Origin: an uncultured Solirubrobacterales bacterium
GTDB taxonomy: Bacteria; Actinomycetota; Thermoleophilia; Solirubrobacterales; 70-9
Reading direction: 5' to 3'
Length of the DNA: 64,000 nucleotides
NCBI GenBank assembly: GCA_963705365.1
Contig: OY970074.1
Coordinates: 866,064-930,063 of the forward strand
Shown here: positions 5,692 through 62,672 of the stretch, in pieces
Layout of the letters: the number at the start of each line of letters is the position of its first letter
Position numbering within the stretch: position 1 is the first letter of the stretch
Position numbers and translations under genes: made by a program
Notes under the pieces: generated by a model
What the model was told of the DNA's origin: nothing
The model's input: only the letters and a program-made list of their open reading frames with translations
Databases searched by the model: none

Positions 5692-6201
5692 ATGGAGGCG
5701 AAGAGTTTCGACAAGGGGATCCTCGACGGCGACAGCTCCGCCACGCGGGACCACGTCGTCGAGCTGCTGACTAAGGCGTACTGGATGGAGATCGAGACGG
5801 TGATGAGCTACCTCGCCGCCTCGACCAACCTGGACGGGGTTCGCGCGCAGGAGATCAAGGAGTCCCTCGCCGAGGACATCGAAGAGGAGCTCGGCCACGC
5901 CCGCCAGTTCGCGGCCCGGATCAAGGAGCTCTACGGCGTCGTTCCCGGCTCGGAGGACTTCCGCGCCGAACAGAGCTTCCTGCAGCCGCCAGAGCACCAG
6001 ACCGACACCGTCCACGTGATCCGCGGCGTGATCAAGGCCGAGACCGGCGCGATCGAGCACTACACGCGGATGATCGAGGAGACCGACGCGGTCGATCCGG
6101 TCACCCAGGACATGGTGATCGGCATCCTGCGTGATGAGCAGGCGCACCGGCGGTTGTTCGAGGGGTTCTTGCGGGAGTATGAGTTCGAAGGGAAGGCCTG
6201 A
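5692..6201 (+). CDS. ferritin-like (bacterioferritin/Dps superfamily) domain protein
   Basis: 169 aa. Four-helix-bundle pattern with paired ExxH-type motifs (EEELGHARQF, LRDEQAHRRLF). Confidence 0.7.
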   Translation: MEAKSFDKGILDGDSSATRDHVVELLTKAYWMEIETVMSYLAASTNLDGVRAQEIKESLAEDIEEELGHARQFAARIKELYGVVPGSEDFRAEQSFLQPPEHQTDTVHVIRGVIKAETGAIEHYTRMIEETDAVDPVTQDMVIGILRDEQAHRRLFEGFLREYEFEGKA

Positions 6202-6216
6202 GGCGGGGTGATGGGA

Positions 6217-6357
6217 GGGACCTGGTCGCCCTCCAGTCGAATTAGTCGCGCACCCTTCGGGTGCGGCTCCGGATGATGGTGCGCGCCTATGGCGCGCAGG
6301 AGTCGGATTGCATGTCGCGGCCTGCGGCCACATTCGACTGGAGGGCGACCAGGCCCC
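6217..6357 (+). repeat. family-1 nested-hairpin intergenic element, copy A (GCTCCGGATGAT / GATTGCATGTCGC core)
   Basis: 6221-6242 pairs perfectly with 6332-6353 (22 bp). The 89-nt core aligns with cores at 40586-40677 (+) and 40855-40944 (-). Confidence 0.9.
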
Positions 6358-6387
6358 TCGCCAACACGTCGCCTAGGCTCATTTGCT

Positions 6388-6897
6388 GTGACAGGCACTG
6401 AGGGGAACCTGCGGATTCGGCCGGCGACGGAGGGGGATGTTGAGACTCTCTTTGGGCTGATCCTGGAGTTGGCGGAGTATGAGAAATTGAGCGATGTGAT
6501 GCGGGGGGATGCGGAGGTGCTGCGGCGTTCGTTGTTCGAGCAGCGGGCGGCGGAGGCGCTGATGGTTGAAGTCGGTGGAGAGGCGGTCGGCTACGCGATC
6601 TTCTTCACCACCTTCTCGACCTTCGAGTGCCGCTCCGGCGTCTGGGTCGAGGATGTCTACGTGCGGCCCTCGCATCGTCGCGACGGCATCGGCCGGGCGG
6701 TCATGGAGCACCTCGCGGCGCTGACTCTGGAGCGCGGTCACGTCCGCCTCGAATGGTGCGCGCTCGAGTGGAATGAGCCGGCGCTGCGCTTCTACGACAA
6801 GCTCGGCGCCACCCGGCTCGAGGAGTGGCGGATGCTGCGCCTCGAGCGCGAGGGCATGCAGCGGCTCGCGGGCGATGGGCCGATAAGTCGACCCTGA
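6388..6897 (+). CDS. GNAT family N-acetyltransferase (diamine/SSAT-like)
   Basis: Track ORF 6289..6897. The first 33 codons run through repeat A, so GTG 6388 (VTGTEGNLRIRPATEGDVE) is preferred. The GNAT acetyl-CoA region is RRDGIGRAVMEHL. Confidence 0.8.
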   Translation: MTGTEGNLRIRPATEGDVETLFGLILELAEYEKLSDVMRGDAEVLRRSLFEQRAAEALMVEVGGEAVGYAIFFTTFSTFECRSGVWVEDVYVRPSHRRDGIGRAVMEHLAALTLERGHVRLEWCALEWNEPALRFYDKLGATRLEEWRMLRLEREGMQRLAGDGPISRP

Positions 6898-6916
6898 CTC
6901 GACTTATCGGCCCATC
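6874..6916. terminator. 18-bp perfect hairpin between convergent genes, overlapping the GNAT stop codon
   Basis: gatgggccgataagtcga (6874-6891), loop ccctgac, tcgacttatcggcccatc (6899-6916). No U-tract. Confidence 0.5.
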
Positions 6917-6928
6917 GGCCGGCGGTCG

Positions 6929-7135
6929 CTACTCCTCGCGCGGCGTGATGCGGAAGATCGAGACGACCTCGGCCTGGTGGGCCTCGGGGTGGGCTACGTA
7001 GGCGCTGGGGCCGCCACCGAACCAGCCTGCGGCTTCGTTGTCGCCGACGAAGACGCCTGGATGGCGCTTGCCGTCCCCGTCCTGGACCCAGACCTTGTCG
7101 CCCTCCCTGAACCCGTGCTCGATCGCCTCGCTCAT
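6929..7135 (-). CDS. hypothetical small protein (68 aa)
   Basis: ORF translationally coupled to the upstream VOC gene (adjacent at 7135). No recognised domain. Confidence 0.5.
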   Translation of the reverse strand: MSEAIEHGFREGDKVWVQDGDGKRHPGVFVGDNEAAGWFGGGPSAYVAHPEAHQAEVVSIFRITPREE

Positions 7136-20481: not shown

Positions 20482-20533
20482 GCGAACGCCAGGACTTTTG
20501 GACGCTATGGCAACAAAAAGTCCTGGCGTTCGC
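20482..20533. repeat. 18-bp perfect inverted repeat in a divergent promoter region
   Basis: gcgaacgccaggactttt (20482-20499) and aaaagtcctggcgttcgc (20516-20533) flank a 16-nt spacer. Confidence 0.8.
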
Positions 20534-39161: not shown

Positions 39162-40544
39162 ATGCAGACCTCTGTCAAAGAGCTGCCCGACTCGCGCGTC
39201 AGCGTCGAGGTCGAGGTTCCCGCCAAGGACGTCGAGCGCGCCACCTCGCGCGCCGCCCGGGCAATGGCAAAGGAGATGCGGATGCCCGGTTTTCGTCAGG
39301 GCAAGGCGCCGCCCTCGCTGGTGATCCAGCGGCTCGGCTTTGGGTCGGTGCTGCAGGAGGCGATCCGCGAGGCGCTGCCCGAGTGGTACGAAAGCGCTTT
39401 GCTCGACAGCGGCGTCTCGCCAATCGGCGATCCCAGCATCGAGATGGTTGCCACTCCCGAGGAAGAGGGCGAGCCGCTGGAGTTCAAGTTCGAGGTCGGC
39501 GTACGGCCCCCGGCGAAGCTGGGCGAGTACAAGGGCCTCGAGGTCGGCCGCAAGGAGAACGAGGTTCCCGACGACGTCGTCGATCGTGAGATCGAGCGGG
39601 TCCGGGAAAGCTTCGCCCGCCTGGAGCCGGTCGAACGCGCCGCGACGGATGGCGACTCGCTGCTGATCGACTTCGAGGGACTTATCGATGGCACCGCGTT
39701 CGAGGGCGGCAAGGCCGAGGACTACCTGCTCGAGCTCGGCTCGGGGCAGCTCATAGAGGGCTTCGAGGAGCAGCTTGCGGGTGCCGAGGCGGGGGACGAG
39801 CGGGAGGTGAAGGTGACCTTTCCGGCCGAATATCAGGCCGAGCACCTCGCTGGCAAAGATGCTGTCTTCAAAGTCAAGGTCAAAGAGGTGCGGGAGAAGA
39901 TCCTGCCCGAGCTCGACGACGACTTCGCCTCCGATGCGTCTGAGTTCGAGACCCTTGACGAGCTGCGCGCCGATATCCGCGAGAAAGTCGGAGAGGCACT
40001 GGCGGGCAGGGCCGAGGAAGACTTTCGCATCGCCGCCATCGACGCCGCAGTCGCCGTGGCGACGGTCGATGTGCCGGCGAGCCTGGTCACCGCCCGCGCG
40101 AGCGAACGCTGGGAGCGGATGGAACGGCAGCTGGCTCAGCGCGGGATGGATCCCAACACCTTCTTGCAGATGCAGGGCAAAACGCGTGAGGAACTGATTG
40201 AGGAATCGAAGCCCGACGCCGAGCGGGAGCTGAAACGCGAGGCGGTCGTCACCGCGATCGCCGCAGCGGAGGAGATCGAGGTCTCCGACGAGGAGCTGGT
40301 CGAGGCGCTCGAGCACAGCGCTCAGCACGAACGGACGACGCCGCAGAAGCTGCTCGAGCGGCTGCGCGAGAACGGTCGCGACTCGATGGTCGTCGAAGAC
40401 ATCAGGGCGCGCAAGGCGATCGAGCTGGTGGCGGAGTCGGCGGTGCCGATCCCGGTCGAGCAGGCGGAGGCGCGTGAGCAGATTTGGACGCCGGAGAAAG
40501 AGCGGGAGAAAGCCGGGGGGCTCTGGACGCCTGACTCCGAGTAG
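39162..40544 (+). CDS. tig: trigger factor
   Basis: 460 aa with FRQGKAP and an internal FKBP-type PPIase domain. Confidence 0.93.
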   Translation: MQTSVKELPDSRVSVEVEVPAKDVERATSRAARAMAKEMRMPGFRQGKAPPSLVIQRLGFGSVLQEAIREALPEWYESALLDSGVSPIGDPSIEMVATPEEEGEPLEFKFEVGVRPPAKLGEYKGLEVGRKENEVPDDVVDREIERVRESFARLEPVERAATDGDSLLIDFEGLIDGTAFEGGKAEDYLLELGSGQLIEGFEEQLAGAEAGDEREVKVTFPAEYQAEHLAGKDAVFKVKVKEVREKILPELDDDFASDASEFETLDELRADIREKVGEALAGRAEEDFRIAAIDAAVAVATVDVPASLVTARASERWERMERQLAQRGMDPNTFLQMQGKTREELIEESKPDAERELKREAVVTAIAAAEEIEVSDEELVEALEHSAQHERTTPQKLLERLRENGRDSMVVEDIRARKAIELVAESAVPIPVEQAEAREQIWTPEKEREKAGGLWTPDSE

Positions 40545-40555
40545 CGCGGGGCGGG

Positions 40556-40707
40556 GGAGGGGTGTCGGTAGTGCCCCGCGGGAATTGGGTCGCGCGCCCT
40601 GCGGGCGCGGCTCCGGATGATTGTGCGCCCCTCTGGGGCGCAGATGACAGATTGCATGTCGCGCCCCTTCGGGGCACATTCCCGCGGGGCACTACCGACA
40701 CCCCTCC
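40556..40707 (+). repeat. family-1 nested-hairpin element, copy B
   Basis: The perfect 30-bp outer stem pairs 40556-40585 with 40678-40707. The core 40586-40677 aligns with copies A and C. Confidence 0.9.
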
Positions 40708-40822
40708 ACGCACGAGCTCCAAGCAGGCGCCCGGCTCCCGGCAGCTTTTGCGAAAGCTGACGATCCTCGGCCGCTCCGACAGGCAGAAAGCTTCCACCCT
40801 GAGCTGTCCCAGGCTGCGTGTT

Positions 40823-40975
40823 GGAGGAGGGGTCTGGCCATCCCCCGGGCGAATGTCGCCGCAGGCGGCGAAATGCAATCTCATTATCTGCCCGCCATAG
40901 GCGGGCACCATCATCCGGAGCCGCACCCGAAGGGTGCGCGACAAATTCGCGCGCGGGGGTGCCGGCATCCCTCCC
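40823..40975 (-). repeat. family-1 nested-hairpin element, copy C (inverted relative to B)
   Basis: The reverse complement of 40855-40944 aligns with the A and B cores. The outer stem is imperfect (40842-40854 with 40945-40959, plus degenerate extension). Confidence 0.85.
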
Positions 40976-41020
40976 TCACTGCGCTCAGCCACGCTGGACG
41001 CCTTCTATAGAGTGCGATCC

Positions 41021-41605
41021 ATGAGCCCTCTGGTCCCAATGGTGGTCGAGCAGACGTCGCGCGGGGAGCGGGCGTTTGACATTTATTCGCGCCTGCTGGG
41101 CGAGCGCATCATCTTTCTGGGGACGCCGGTGACCGAGGACATCGCGAATCTGATCGTGGCCCAGCTCCTGCATCTGGAGTCGGAGGATCCGGACAAGGAC
41201 GTCAGCCTCTACATCAACTCGCCCGGCGGTTCTGTCTACGCCGGGCTGGCGATCTACGACACGATGCAGTTCATCAAGCCCGACGTCCAGACGATCTGCG
41301 TCGGCGTCGCGATGAGCATGGGGGCGCTGCTGCTCAGCGGCGGCGCGGCCGGCAAGCGGATGGCCCTGCCGAACTCAAAGATCCTCATTCACCAGGTCTC
41401 CGCGGGGTTCCAGGGCCAGGCCACCGACATCGAGATCCACGCCAGAGAGATCATCGACGTCCGTCGCCGGCTCGACGAGATCATCGCCAAGCACACCGGC
41501 CAGTCGTTCGAGAAGGTCACTCAGGACACCGAACGCGACTACTTCATGAGCGCTGCGGAGGCGAAGGAGTACAGCATCGTCGACCGCGTCATCGAGCACC
41601 ACTGA
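41021..41605 (+). CDS. clpP: ATP-dependent Clp protease proteolytic subunit
   Basis: ATG 41021 ([26 protein letters not shown]). The upstream part of track ORF 40934..41605 runs through repeat C. The catalytic Ser context is GVAMSMGA. Confidence 0.93.
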
Positions 41606-45086: not shown

Positions 45087-45207
45087 GGAAGGGGCGGGGC
45101 ACCCCTTTCTCGGAGCACCTCGTCGGGAGTGTCGCCTTCGGCTGCCGCCCGGAGGCTGCCGGCCCTCCTCATGCTGAGTACCGAGGAAGGGGTGCCCCGC
45201 CCCTTCC
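45087..45207 (+). repeat. family-2 nested-hairpin element, copy D (AGCACCTC ... CATGCTGAGTA core)
   Basis: The perfect 21-bp outer stem pairs 45087-45107 with 45187-45207. Confidence 0.88.
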
Positions 45208-45290
45208 CCGACACGCCTTCGCGGAACGGCTGGACTAACGGCGCTATTGAAAGCTGCCGCACCGCGCAGCGTCTGCTGGAGCTCGGTTGT

Positions 45291-45417
45291 GGGGAGGGTG
45301 CCGGTGGGGGTCTCCCGGTACTCAGCATGGAGCCGAGCCACTGTGGACCGGGGCGTCAGCCAATTGCCGCTTCTCTCGGCGGAGGTGCTCCGGGAGACCC
45401 TCACCGGCACCCTCCCC
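45291..45417 (-). repeat. family-2 nested-hairpin element, copy E (inverted relative to D)
   Basis: The 28-bp outer stem, with one mismatch, pairs 45291-45318 with 45390-45417. The core carries tactcagcatg and ggaggtgct, the reverse complements of the copy D motifs. Confidence 0.88.
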
Positions 45418-45446
45418 ACATAGGCGCACCTATCTAGACTCGCCGC

Positions 45447-50210: not shown

Positions 50211-50586
50211 CGCCTTCGAACGCGCCCTCACTGGCGAGGTAATTGCCCGCTTCGAGCGCAAGGGGCTTCGCATCGCCGCCCTCAAGTCGATGCGCGCCGA
50301 CGAGTCGATCGCCAACGCTCACTATGCGGAGCACGCCGAGAAGCCGTTCTTCGGCGAGCTCGTCTCCTTCATCACCGGCGGCACGCTGGTGGCGATGGTG
50401 CTCGAGGGCTCCGAAGCGGTGCCGGCGGCCCGCCAGCTGATCGGGGCGACCAACCCGGTCGAGGCGGCGCCCGGTTCAATCCGCGGGGACTTTGCGCTGG
50501 AGGTCACCTTCAACATGGTGCATGGGTCCGACTCGGATGAGTCGGCTGAGCGCGAGATTGGGATCTGGTTTCCCGAGCTGGCGTAG
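50179..50586 (+). CDS. ndk: nucleoside-diphosphate kinase
   Basis: 135 aa. LILVKPDAF; the active-site His is in NMVHGSDS. Confidence 0.93.
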
Positions 50587-50702
50587 TGGCGGGGATCCGG
50601 GTAGGGGCTGCACTTAACTTTTTCGTGGGGCGCCGGCGGCCGTTCGAGATTCGCGGCGGCGAAAAAGTACAAGGCGTTCCGCCCCTACCCGGATCCCCGC
50701 CA
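50587..50702 (+). repeat. family-3 nested-hairpin element, copy F (TTTTCG ... CGAAAA core)
   Basis: The perfect 22-bp outer stem pairs 50587-50608 with 50681-50702. It spans the whole ndk-maf spacer and ends on the A of the maf ATG. Confidence 0.88.
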
Positions 50703-51289
50703 TGAGCGGAGCACGGGAATCCAGCTTGATCTCGAAGCGGGTGGTTCTGGCGTCCGGGTCGCCTCAGCGGAGGGAGATCCTCTCCAAGCTCGGCATCGAG
50801 TTCGAGGTTTTGGTGCCTGGCGTGGAGGAGCTCACCGGGGGAGACCCGGAGGTTGAGGTGGTGGAGAACGCTCGGTTGAAGGCTCGGGCGGTTGCGGCGG
50901 GCGCGGATGATTTGGTCATCGGCTGCGATACCGATGTCGTGCTCGATGGGAAGGCGTTGGGGAAGCCGGCGGATGAGGTGGAGGCGCGCCGGTATCTCGA
51001 TCGGATGGCGGGGCGGGCGCATACCGTGATGAGCGGGCTCGTCGTCCGCGAGGGTGGGGAGGAGCGAAGCGGGCTGGAACGGACCTCGGTGGTCTTCAAG
51101 GAGCTCTCGGAGGCCGAGAAGGAGCGGTACGTGGGGTTCGGGGAGTGGCGGGGGCGGTCGGGGGGGTATGCGATCCAGACCCTGGGCTCGACGCTGGTGG
51201 AGCGGGTCGAGGGGAGCGTCTCGAACGTGGTCGGGCTGCCGGTGGGGTTGCTGCTGGAGCTCGCCCCTCGCCTGTTCACACCTGCCTGA
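50702..51289 (+). CDS. maf: Maf family nucleotide pyrophosphatase
   Basis: 195 aa with [14 protein letters not shown] and GAYGIQ-like GGYAIQ. Confidence 0.88.
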
Positions 51290-61030: not shown

Positions 61031-61155
61031 GGGAGGGGCCGAGGGGTCCCTCCCATTTCGCTGGGATTTTCGCCGTTAGCGCCGCGTCTCTCGCCGCGAG
61101 CTCCGCTGCGAAAATCAGGGACGCCGCTCATGGGAGGGACCCCTCGGCCCCTCCC
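61031..61155 (-). repeat. family-3 nested-hairpin element, copy G
   Basis: The perfect 25-bp outer stem pairs 61031-61055 with 61131-61155. An inner inverted repeat is gattttcgc...gcgaaaatc. Confidence 0.88.
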
Positions 61156-62555: not shown

Positions 62556-62672
62556 GCCCGGTCGGGTGTCCCTCCCGCTGCGCTGTCGTTTTCGCTCGGA
62601 AACTCTGTGGCCTCGCGAGGTTCGGGTGGGCGAAAACGTAGCGCCGCTTGCGGGAGGGACACCCGACCGGGC
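62556..62672 (+). repeat. family-3 nested-hairpin element, copy H
   Basis: The perfect 23-bp outer stem pairs 62556-62578 with 62650-62672. An inner inverted repeat is cgttttcgc...gcgaaaacg. Confidence 0.88.

Follow-up and report, generated by a model that had tools for sequence, protein, structure and literature searches.

Copies of a nested-hairpin element in the window

The window analyzed here, a 64,000-nucleotide stretch of contig OY970074.1 from an uncultured Solirubrobacterales bacterium, contains three copies of a nested-hairpin element. Copy A lies in the spacer between a ferritin-like gene, the close relatives of whose product are annotated as Solirubrobacterales, and a GNAT gene, and copies B and C lie between tig (trigger factor) and clpP. 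Each unit of ~165 nt consists of an outer stem of ~30 bp around three short triloop hairpins (H1, H2, and H3), followed by a 3' tail of 10–40 nt. The covariance model of the family, described below, has exactly three matches in the window, scoring 169 bits for copy A, 162 bits for copy B, and 135 bits for copy C, and the coordinates of these copies are collected in Table 1. Taken with its relatives in other genomes, the element belongs to a family that behaves as a duplicating extragenic repeat sited at operon ends, in the manner of repetitive extragenic palindromic (REP) sequences and bacterial interspersed mosaic elements (BIMEs).

An initial annotation of the window had placed the element at 6217–6357, where a sequence as described is indeed found. 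Its outer stem had been given as a perfect 22-bp pairing of 6221–6242 with 6332–6353; the stem is present but longer, with arms of 28 nt each that are 96% complementary and contain one A.C mismatch. The predicted RNA fold of copy A has an energy of -98.4 kcal/mol (z = -9.5 compared with shuffled sequences), and when the core is folded as DNA both strands give the same three hairpins. These are joined in copy A by TAGTCG, GCTCCGGATGATGG, and GGAGTCG-GATTGCAT-GTC, and the 18-nt linker motif has 3 matches in the window compared with 0.17 expected by chance. The alignment of this core with those at 40586–40677 (plus strand) and 40855–40944 (minus strand), the identical linkers GCTCCGGATGAT[G/T]G and GATTGCAT[G/T]TCGC, and the paired substitutions listed for hairpins 1–3 across the three copies were all reproduced, and the C.A mismatch of H3 is present in all three window copies as well as in 101 of the 103 distinct copies of the wider family. 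Two statements about the outer stem had to be given up. It had been called unrelated in sequence between copies, but the termini GGGAGGG/CCCTCCC, the inner GAAT/ATTC, and the consensus GGGAGGGatgCCGGtacCCCTCCgcGGGAAT are common, with two subtypes; it had also been called always paired, but copy C forms only 22 of the 30 Watson–Crick pairs.

Two features go beyond that first account, namely a conserved 3' tail after the stem and the relation of B and C as the halves of one convergent pair. The sequence past the 3' arm reads CCCTCC-CAACACG, the tail being CAACACG... in copies A and C and ACGcACGAGCTCC in copy B. Copy B starts 11 nt past the tig stop codon and its convergent partner C lies ~45 nt upstream of the clpP ATG (41021), the two forming a heterotypic, tail-to-tail pair 89 nt apart. 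Beside copy C, or its remnant, a conserved cttcTATAGAgtgcg is located 10 nt before the clpP ATG (window 40990–41023; locus L002:7280–7306), which resembles a -10 box from which clpP would be transcribed with a short leader or none, and any -35 element would then lie inside the repeat arm.

Table 1. Positions of the three copies in the window, with the parts of copy A
Feature	Position	Strand	Description
Copy A, whole unit	6213..6368	+	
Copy A, outer stem, 5' arm	6215..6242	+	Type a (GAGGGACCTGGTCGCCCTCCAGTCGAAT); 28 of 30 model pairs Watson–Crick
Copy A, H1	6249..6265	+	7 bp, TTC loop; conserved TAGTCG before it
Copy A, linker 2	6266..6279	+	GCTCC kept family-wide; GGATGATGG variable in copies found by the model alone
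Copy A, H2	6280..6298	+	8 bp, conserved TAT loop
Copy A, linker 3	6299..6316	+	Variable GGAGTCG, invariant GATTGCAT (6306–6313), then GTC
Copy A, H3	6317..6331	+	TGC loop; conserved C6318.A6330 mismatch; abuts outer stem
Copy A, outer stem, 3' arm	6332..6359	+	
Copy A, 3' tail	6360..6368	+	GCCAACACG; truncated type-I tail; part of the sequence missing here in relatives
Copy B	40556..40721	+	Type b; arms 40556–40585 and 40678–40707 (30 of 30 pairs); core 40586–40677; tail ACGCACGAGCTCC
B/C spacer	40722..40810		Two inward-pointing tails, AGCT-rich; hairpin CAGCTTT-TGCG-AAAGCTG at 40742–40759
Copy C	40811..40975	-	Core 40855–40944; type-I tail CCAACACGCAGCC on the minus strand

Conservation of the fold across the family

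With one genome taken per species, a pattern scan gave at least ~45 true copies in at least 22 species-level metagenome-assembled genomes (MAGs), and a stricter pattern gave 40 soil-metagenome loci. With a covariance model built from an alignment of copies (A3), at least 109 copies, at least 103 of them distinct, were recovered from MAGs and soil metagenomes at scores above 97 bits. All hosts of the matches listed are uncultured and labelled Solirubrobacterales, Thermoleophilia, or Actinomycetota. Plasmid and phage collections contained no matches to the family, and the single pattern match in a scan of viral contigs was judged to be due to chance. Because the loci were gathered with CTCCGGATGAT...GATTGCAT, those positions are biased, and the 35 copies found by the model alone constitute the unbiased set.

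The outer stem follows the consensus GGGAGGG...GAAT / ATTC...CCCTCCC, is diverged over its ~30 bp, and occurs in two subtypes with arms ending in ...CGAAT or ...GGGAAT; the single-stranded linkers TnAGTCG, GCTCC, and GATTGCAT are conserved. The junctions had been described as nearly invariant, and in the 35 model-only copies this is true of GAATT, GTCGCG, GCTCC, GATTGCAT, ACATTC, and the TAT loop, each kept at 95% or more, but not of the GGATGAT half of linker 2, which is variable, as are the 7–8 nt before GATTGCAT. A hammerhead-like CUGAUGA in linker 2 was discarded because the segment varies in these copies, and an additional helix joining linker 2 to the variable linker, or involving GCAU, was discarded because its pairing is not maintained across copies. 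Type-a tails read CAACACGCAgCAtc and continue into a further conserved module, GGGACGGCCGAGGGTTCGG(C)AGCT (e.g. L124:3840–3925 on the minus strand, L147:2686–2740, L139, and L130), and a related motif, GGGACGGCC, recurs in other repeats of these genomes.

Pairing within the fold is maintained far beyond what a shifted alignment gives. With 40 copies aligned by MAFFT, 92.4% of cells are paired, compared with 42–49% when partners are slid by 1–3 columns, and both sides have changed in 37 of the 50 pairs. RNAalifold, applied to a MAFFT alignment, predicts the same helices independently. For the 103 distinct copies, in an alignment fitted to the model, the corresponding values are 94.1% and 41–49%, with double substitutions in 42 of the 50 pairs (1071 cells), and none of 500 shuffles matches any of the observed covariation measures. 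The fold, beyond the sequence, is thus conserved and selected, as had been proposed from the three window copies. The suggestion that a conserved peptide is unlikely is likewise borne out, as the indels in loops and linkers are not multiples of three. What does not survive is the opposition of a fold to a terminal repeat, since the family also has conserved inverted termini and a conserved tail, is multi-copy, shows insertion and deletion differences between relatives, and has undergone a recent burst in one MAG; it therefore behaves like a mobile extragenic repeat as well.

The pairs are strict. Among 5084 pair cells 4751 are Watson–Crick, 31 are G.U, and 114 are A.C, with one-sided wobble changes in ~30 cells; so few G.U pairs are not typical of elements under selection as one RNA strand. 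The excess of A.C stems from a few columns, namely the C.A of H3, another C.A at the basal position of H1, seen in 33 copies, and an A.C that 10 copies have in type-a arms, and the comparison of A.C with G.U cell counts was therefore dropped as a strand signal, its apparent significance coming from these columns. All three conserved mismatches are of the A.C type and become G.U or G.T on the complementary strand, on which the T-N-C loops of H1 and H3 also read G-N-A. Folding energies favor the complementary strand slightly, in 30 of 40 copies, an effect too small for a decision between strands. The conserved mismatches give a hint toward the strand opposite the mRNA of the upstream gene, and the mRNA-sense strand may therefore not be the one that matters.

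No named family accounts for these features. The whole window has 0 matches in Rfam 15 at gathering thresholds, in keeping with the view of the initial annotation that this is not a named RNA family, and at E values up to 10 the sole notable match is the long plant hairpin MIR1437, which at 37–38 bits compared with a gathering score of 168 is a chance match of a long hairpin. A tRNA-like element was rejected (ARAGORN reports 0 genes in the window, and the inner loops have 3 nt), as was an integron attC site, because the termini are GGGAGGG/CCCTCCC instead of R''/R' boxes (RYYYAAC / GTTRRRY) and the copies form convergent pairs, not same-orientation arrays. The literature that could be searched contains no description of the motif, of such repeats in Thermoleophilia, or of an insertion sequence (IS), miniature inverted-repeat transposable element (MITE), or REP corresponding to it, which agrees with the first impression that it is not a recognized IS or MITE. 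The family is a previously undescribed one and a real, statistically robust feature.

Placement, pairing, and turnover of copies

Gene calls on the flanks were made with a simple GC3-based coding score and are crude; by these calls all placeable copies are intergenic, one copy at a contig edge being ambiguous. The flanking genes are in tandem or convergent, with at most one weak divergent case, and the 5' end of a unit is usually 1–40 nt from a stop codon. For solo copies, a co-directional gene has its stop codon directly at the 5' end of the element in 17 cases as opposed to 3 (binomial p ~0.003). The neighbors, assessed with Pfam on 148 flanking proteins, are housekeeping genes, and upstream genes include atpC, tig, ferritin, and HPF-type genes, with atpC (ATP synthase epsilon) as the immediate upstream gene in at least six species.

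All 39 pairs (36 distinct) are convergent, tail to tail, with gaps mostly of 50–120 nt, and no tandem or divergent pair occurs among them. Approximately 31 of 37 pairs are heterotypic, joining a copy with a ...CGAAT arm to one with a ...GGGAAT arm, each with its own tail type, and the two tails together with small AGCT-stemmed hairpins make up the spacer. Partners are 72% identical compared with 71.5% for random copies; being no more similar to each other than copies drawn at random, they were judged not to be recent inverted duplications. Solo copies exist besides the pairs, which are the usual arrangement. At L002:7255–7275 the partner of the tig–clpP pair has been deleted, leaving 15 nt of its arm (GGAGGGGCCTGGCAC), which shows that a pair can give rise to a solo copy. 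No gene was found between inverted copies in ~85 loci of 2–14 kb, where the longest spacer is 300 nt and contains no open reading frame.

Orthologous sites that carry copies include the tig–clpP interval, whose genes flank the pair in the window, in L002, and in L068, the atp operon end in six MAGs, and the site at a gene ending in GSGGVGPG in five MAGs. Orthologous copies share 73% identity in the outer stem and 80% in the inner stems, compared with 67% at third codon positions and 39% in the flanks; the identity of the junctions is inflated in this comparison, 19 of 34 junction positions being part of the search pattern, and was re-evaluated on the model-only copies. The orthologous stems have diverged yet are still paired, indicating that compensation occurred in place. 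At such sites the fold and the linker motifs persist from species to species even as the stems drift by compensation, and copies are also gained, lost, and amplified. Relatives whose ferritin protein is 96, 93, and 87% identical lack copy A downstream of this gene; in the window it lies, together with its 9-nt tail, between GGCCTGAggcggggtgat and TCGCCTAGG, adjoining a two-gene deletion. Neither copy A, set against L109 and L108, nor the surroundings of the B/C pair show a target-site duplication, in comparisons that offer no clean empty site. In the relatives (L108:1700–2720 and L109:1700–2300, aligned with window 6199–6400) a luciferase-like and/or TrmO gene stands between the ferritin-like and GNAT genes. 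The window genome has lost these luciferase-like/TrmO genes and retains only the first bases (GGCGGGGTG) together with the upstream spacer and start of TrmO (TCGCCTAGG...GTG), now fused to the GNAT frame, with copy A at the junction.

In the SZAS-11 MAG copies that are 95–97% identical are embedded in unrelated flanks, within a longer repeat unit. At the SZAS-11 loci L019, L039, L044, L048, L085, and L096 this unit is at least 500 nt long, with ~17-nt tandem repeats (GAGGGACGGCCGGCTRC) and CCAGGGACCAAGGTTTCGC on the upstream side of the element and CCCAGGGTTCGGGCG repeats, CCCCATCTCTCTT-GAGCTGACAAGGGGACGG, and a hairpin with a 16-bp stem (GAGCTGTTCCTTATGT...ACATAAGGAACAGCTC) downstream; the SZAS-11 contigs are short and end in these repeats. 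Metagenome contigs also start or stop inside copies (L112, L113, L122, L123, L125, L136, L138, and L144), which is consistent with a multi-copy repeat that breaks short-read assemblies.

The window contains other hairpin elements as well. A second nested-hairpin family forms its own tail-to-tail pair at 45087–45207 and 45288–45420, with GGGAGGG-type outer stems, a different core (shared GGTACTCAGCATG...GAGGTGCTCCG), the tails CCGACACG and CACAACCGAGCTCC, and an AGCT-containing spacer; the covariance model of the first family matches it weakly, with 34–37 bits, via the stem. Long-stem elements at 61031–61155, 62556–62672, and 50565–50724 have arms of 23–49 nt, centers of 62–73 nt, and cores with TTTTCGC...GCGAAAA, and each begins a few bases past a stop codon; they probably represent a third family with the same placement rule. 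A simple large hairpin with 32-nt arms at 6860–6930 spans the stop of the GNAT gene, and a perfect 18-bp stem (GCGAACGCCAGGACTTTT/AAAAGTCCTGGCGTTCGC) is located at 20482–20533.

Relation to known repeats and possible roles

REPs, REPINs, and BIMEs are mobilized by RAYT transposases of the Y1-HUH type, occur in E. coli, Pseudomonas, and many other bacteria, and have proposed roles in termination and mRNA stabilization. The present family resembles them in that its imperfect palindromes are extragenic, occur in many copies, and follow the 3' ends of genes in tandem or convergent contexts, in having its orientation set by an asymmetry (a conserved mismatch), and in carrying single-stranded motifs beside the hairpins. 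REP dimers are inverted and mostly heterodimers of two subtypes with characteristic linkers (PMC3733652), and the convergent, usually heterotypic pairs described here are alike in this respect. In contrast to REPs, the unit is ~165 nt instead of 20–40 nt long and has a nested four-helix fold instead of a single hairpin, no RAYT was found in the neighborhoods of copies, which is as far as this search extended, Thermoleophilia are not among the described host clades, and copies are kept at orthologous sites across species. The REP tag is an unpaired GTAG or CGTC at one end (PMC3733652), whereas the termini here are GGGAGGG/CCCTCCC and the tail is CAACACG or CAACGAAT, the nearest feature being the GTCG before hairpins 1 and 3. 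In behavior the family is closest to REP/REPIN/BIME elements, yet it departs from them in size, in the number of hairpins, and in the tag.

Other known systems share single traits. ERIC/IRU elements of enterobacteria (~127 bp) and Correia/NEMIS elements of Neisseria (100–155 bp) are likewise intergenic, fall in the range of 100–170 bp, have ends that pair into a long stem, and are transcribed together with neighboring genes; Correia hairpins are cut by RNase III and have an effect on mRNA levels. They differ in having sequence-conserved terminal inverted repeats (TIRs), with a TA target duplication in Correia, and in lacking both a conserved inner multi-hairpin core of covarying helices and obligate tail-to-tail heterodimers. 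The ends of IS200/IS605 elements and of their non-autonomous derivatives, the palindrome-associated transposable elements (PATEs), are acted on as single-stranded DNA and recognized via subterminal hairpins and nearby single-stranded motifs, structure mattering over stem sequence, as would hold for the present family under a similar mechanism, and no target duplication is expected; their ends, however, are not inverted repeats and have no 30-bp outer stem, and neither a TnpA or TnpB gene among the proteins neighboring the copies nor a conserved target tetra- or pentanucleotide was identified here. An intrinsic (Rho-independent) terminator is also a GC-rich hairpin just past the last stop of an operon, for example after atpC, but the present structure has no U-tract, is far larger, and has conserved linkers in a repeated family with shared sequence.

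The explanation that we favor, and consider somewhat probable on balance, is that the element is a REP/REPIN/BIME-like structured extragenic repeat of Solirubrobacterales that also serves as hairpin punctuation at operon ends. Copies would be spread by a trans-acting, structure- and sequence-specific enzyme recognizing a folded single strand through its hairpins and conserved single-stranded linkers; HUH/RAYT-type enzymes recognize REPs as a folded single strand. Resident copies would persist because a fold of approximately -100 kcal/mol, once transcribed at the end of an operon, could act as a 3'-end barrier, as a pause or termination site, and/or as a long duplex open to cutting by RNase III. 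A transcript across a pair would hold one copy in each orientation, in which case both strands must fold, and this may explain the strict Watson–Crick pairing; palindrome correction at the DNA level is an alternative account of the same strictness. Several observations weigh against this explanation. No mobilizing enzyme was found in ~85 loci or among their 148 neighboring proteins, these being neighborhoods only, and Pfam shows no recurrent transposase in the same proteins. The element is 4–8 times longer than a REP, whose GTAG or CGTC tag it lacks. A filled site could be compared with an empty one in a single case, where the neighboring deletion blurs the picture, and neither a target-site duplication nor a clean empty site was seen. 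Neither a U-tract terminator nor a sigma-70 promoter is seen in or beside the window pair (terminator scan of 40300–41200), the role as an RNA is one that we infer from sequence, and the mRNA-sense strand is possibly not the relevant one given that the conserved mismatches are G.U/G.T on the opposite strand. Long retention at orthologous sites with conserved linkers is, moreover, unusual for a purely selfish repeat, and the family could be primarily a host element.

This last point leads to a reading that we regard as unlikely but deserving attention, in which the element is a non-mobile, cis-acting RNA signal of the host for 3'-end formation, processing, or insulation of operons in this order. 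It might then terminate transcription with the help of a factor, let RNase III or RNase J enter, or act as a stabilizer; the linkers would bind a host RNA-binding protein, and the multiple copies would arise through recruitment by duplication or gene conversion. That copies lie 1–40 nt past the stops of atpC, tig, ferritin, and HPF-type genes, and that 3–6 species retain them at the same positions, speaks for it, as do the avoidance of divergent promoter regions, the co-orientation of solo copies with the upstream gene (17 versus 3), and linkers that are more conserved than the adjacent codon positions 1 and 2, an ascertainment caveat applying to the linkers, for which the model-only copies are the unbiased set. 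It does not easily accommodate that between tandem genes the antisense copy is as conserved as the sense copy (the proximal copy outscores the distal one, in bits, in ~12 of 20 pairs), nor the lineage-specific burst of 95–97% identical copies in unrelated flanks, the gains and losses between close relatives, the absence of a U-tract, and the near-absence of G.U (31 of 5084 cells), which is atypical for selection as one RNA strand only. Another reading takes the element for a structured non-coding RNA with an activity of its own, a trans-acting multi-copy RNA, a protein sponge, or a new self-cleaving ribozyme making mRNA 3' ends, possibly read from the strand opposite to the one first drawn. 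A multiloop of four freely covarying helices whose single-stranded linkers are invariant fits such an RNA; read antisense, the three conserved mismatches are all G.U and the loops of H1 and H3 are G-N-A, and stability is slightly higher in 30 of 40 copies. This reading is nevertheless quite improbable, as no promoter-like site lies in or beside the pair, no Rfam ribozyme or non-coding RNA matches even at E = 10, both orientations are conserved equally, wobble pairs are nearly absent, and a 30-bp perfect duplex with triloops is unusual for catalytic cores.

Two further readings act at the DNA level. A classical TIR-type MITE, that is, an internally deleted IS derivative whose GGGAGGG... termini are bound as double-stranded DNA by a DDE transposase, would make the pair or each unit mobile and the inner hairpins incidental, perfected by templated correction. 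Such an element would have conserved inverted termini, GGGAGGG(R)T...CCCTCCC, common to copies and subtypes, would be multi-copy with presence/absence differences, and would have stems with almost no wobble as DNA-level correction predicts, all of which are observed; other hairpin families of the window also have similar termini but other cores. However, copy A and the surroundings of pairs show no target-site duplication, in comparisons that offer no clean empty site, and no autonomous partner appears in the ~85 loci. Templated correction also leaves unexplained both why flanks randomize but the single-stranded linker motifs and the TAT loop hold at 95% or more in different species and why the three mismatches are themselves conserved. 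We consider this origin improbable. A site acting at the DNA level without any RNA role or mobility of its own, such as a cruciform or hairpin locus bound by a nucleoid, replication, or recombination protein, comparable in function to single-strand initiation sites or to BIMEs as sites for gyrase and IHF, would also be Watson–Crick strict and fold equally as DNA on both strands, as is observed, and the short palindromes TCCGGA and TGCA are present in linkers. A center of ~90 nt disfavors cruciform extrusion, though, the placement after stops and the orientation with the upstream gene suggest transcription, and the TCCGGA in linker 2 varies among the copies found by the model alone, so that this reading is very improbable.

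More tentatively, the family may be a new class of structured nucleic-acid element and not simply a large REP, an interpretation that we think doubtful but worth stating in its two versions. In one, the element would be the folded single-stranded DNA substrate of a structure-specific mobilizing enzyme not yet known; in the other, it would be a protein-recruiting or self-processing four-helix RNA module replacing canonical terminators across an order of soil Actinomycetota. The opposite strand may then be the active one, and strict pairing, the three C.A positions, and the obligate heterotypic dimer may all be functional.

Solirubrobacterales and other Thermoleophilia abound in soils but are almost uncultured, and their non-coding genome is essentially unexplored; a family absent from Rfam and from the searchable literature is documented here with very clear comparative support, including more than 100 copies, covariation in 42 of 50 pairs, and conserved linkers. 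In practical terms such repeats break metagenome assemblies, and the covariance model is ready for use in annotating these genomes. If the element is a REP-like mobile repeat, the class would be extended to a much larger, multi-helix substrate and an enzyme yet to be named would be implied; if it is host punctuation, it would show how operons end in a high-GC clade without U-tract terminators.

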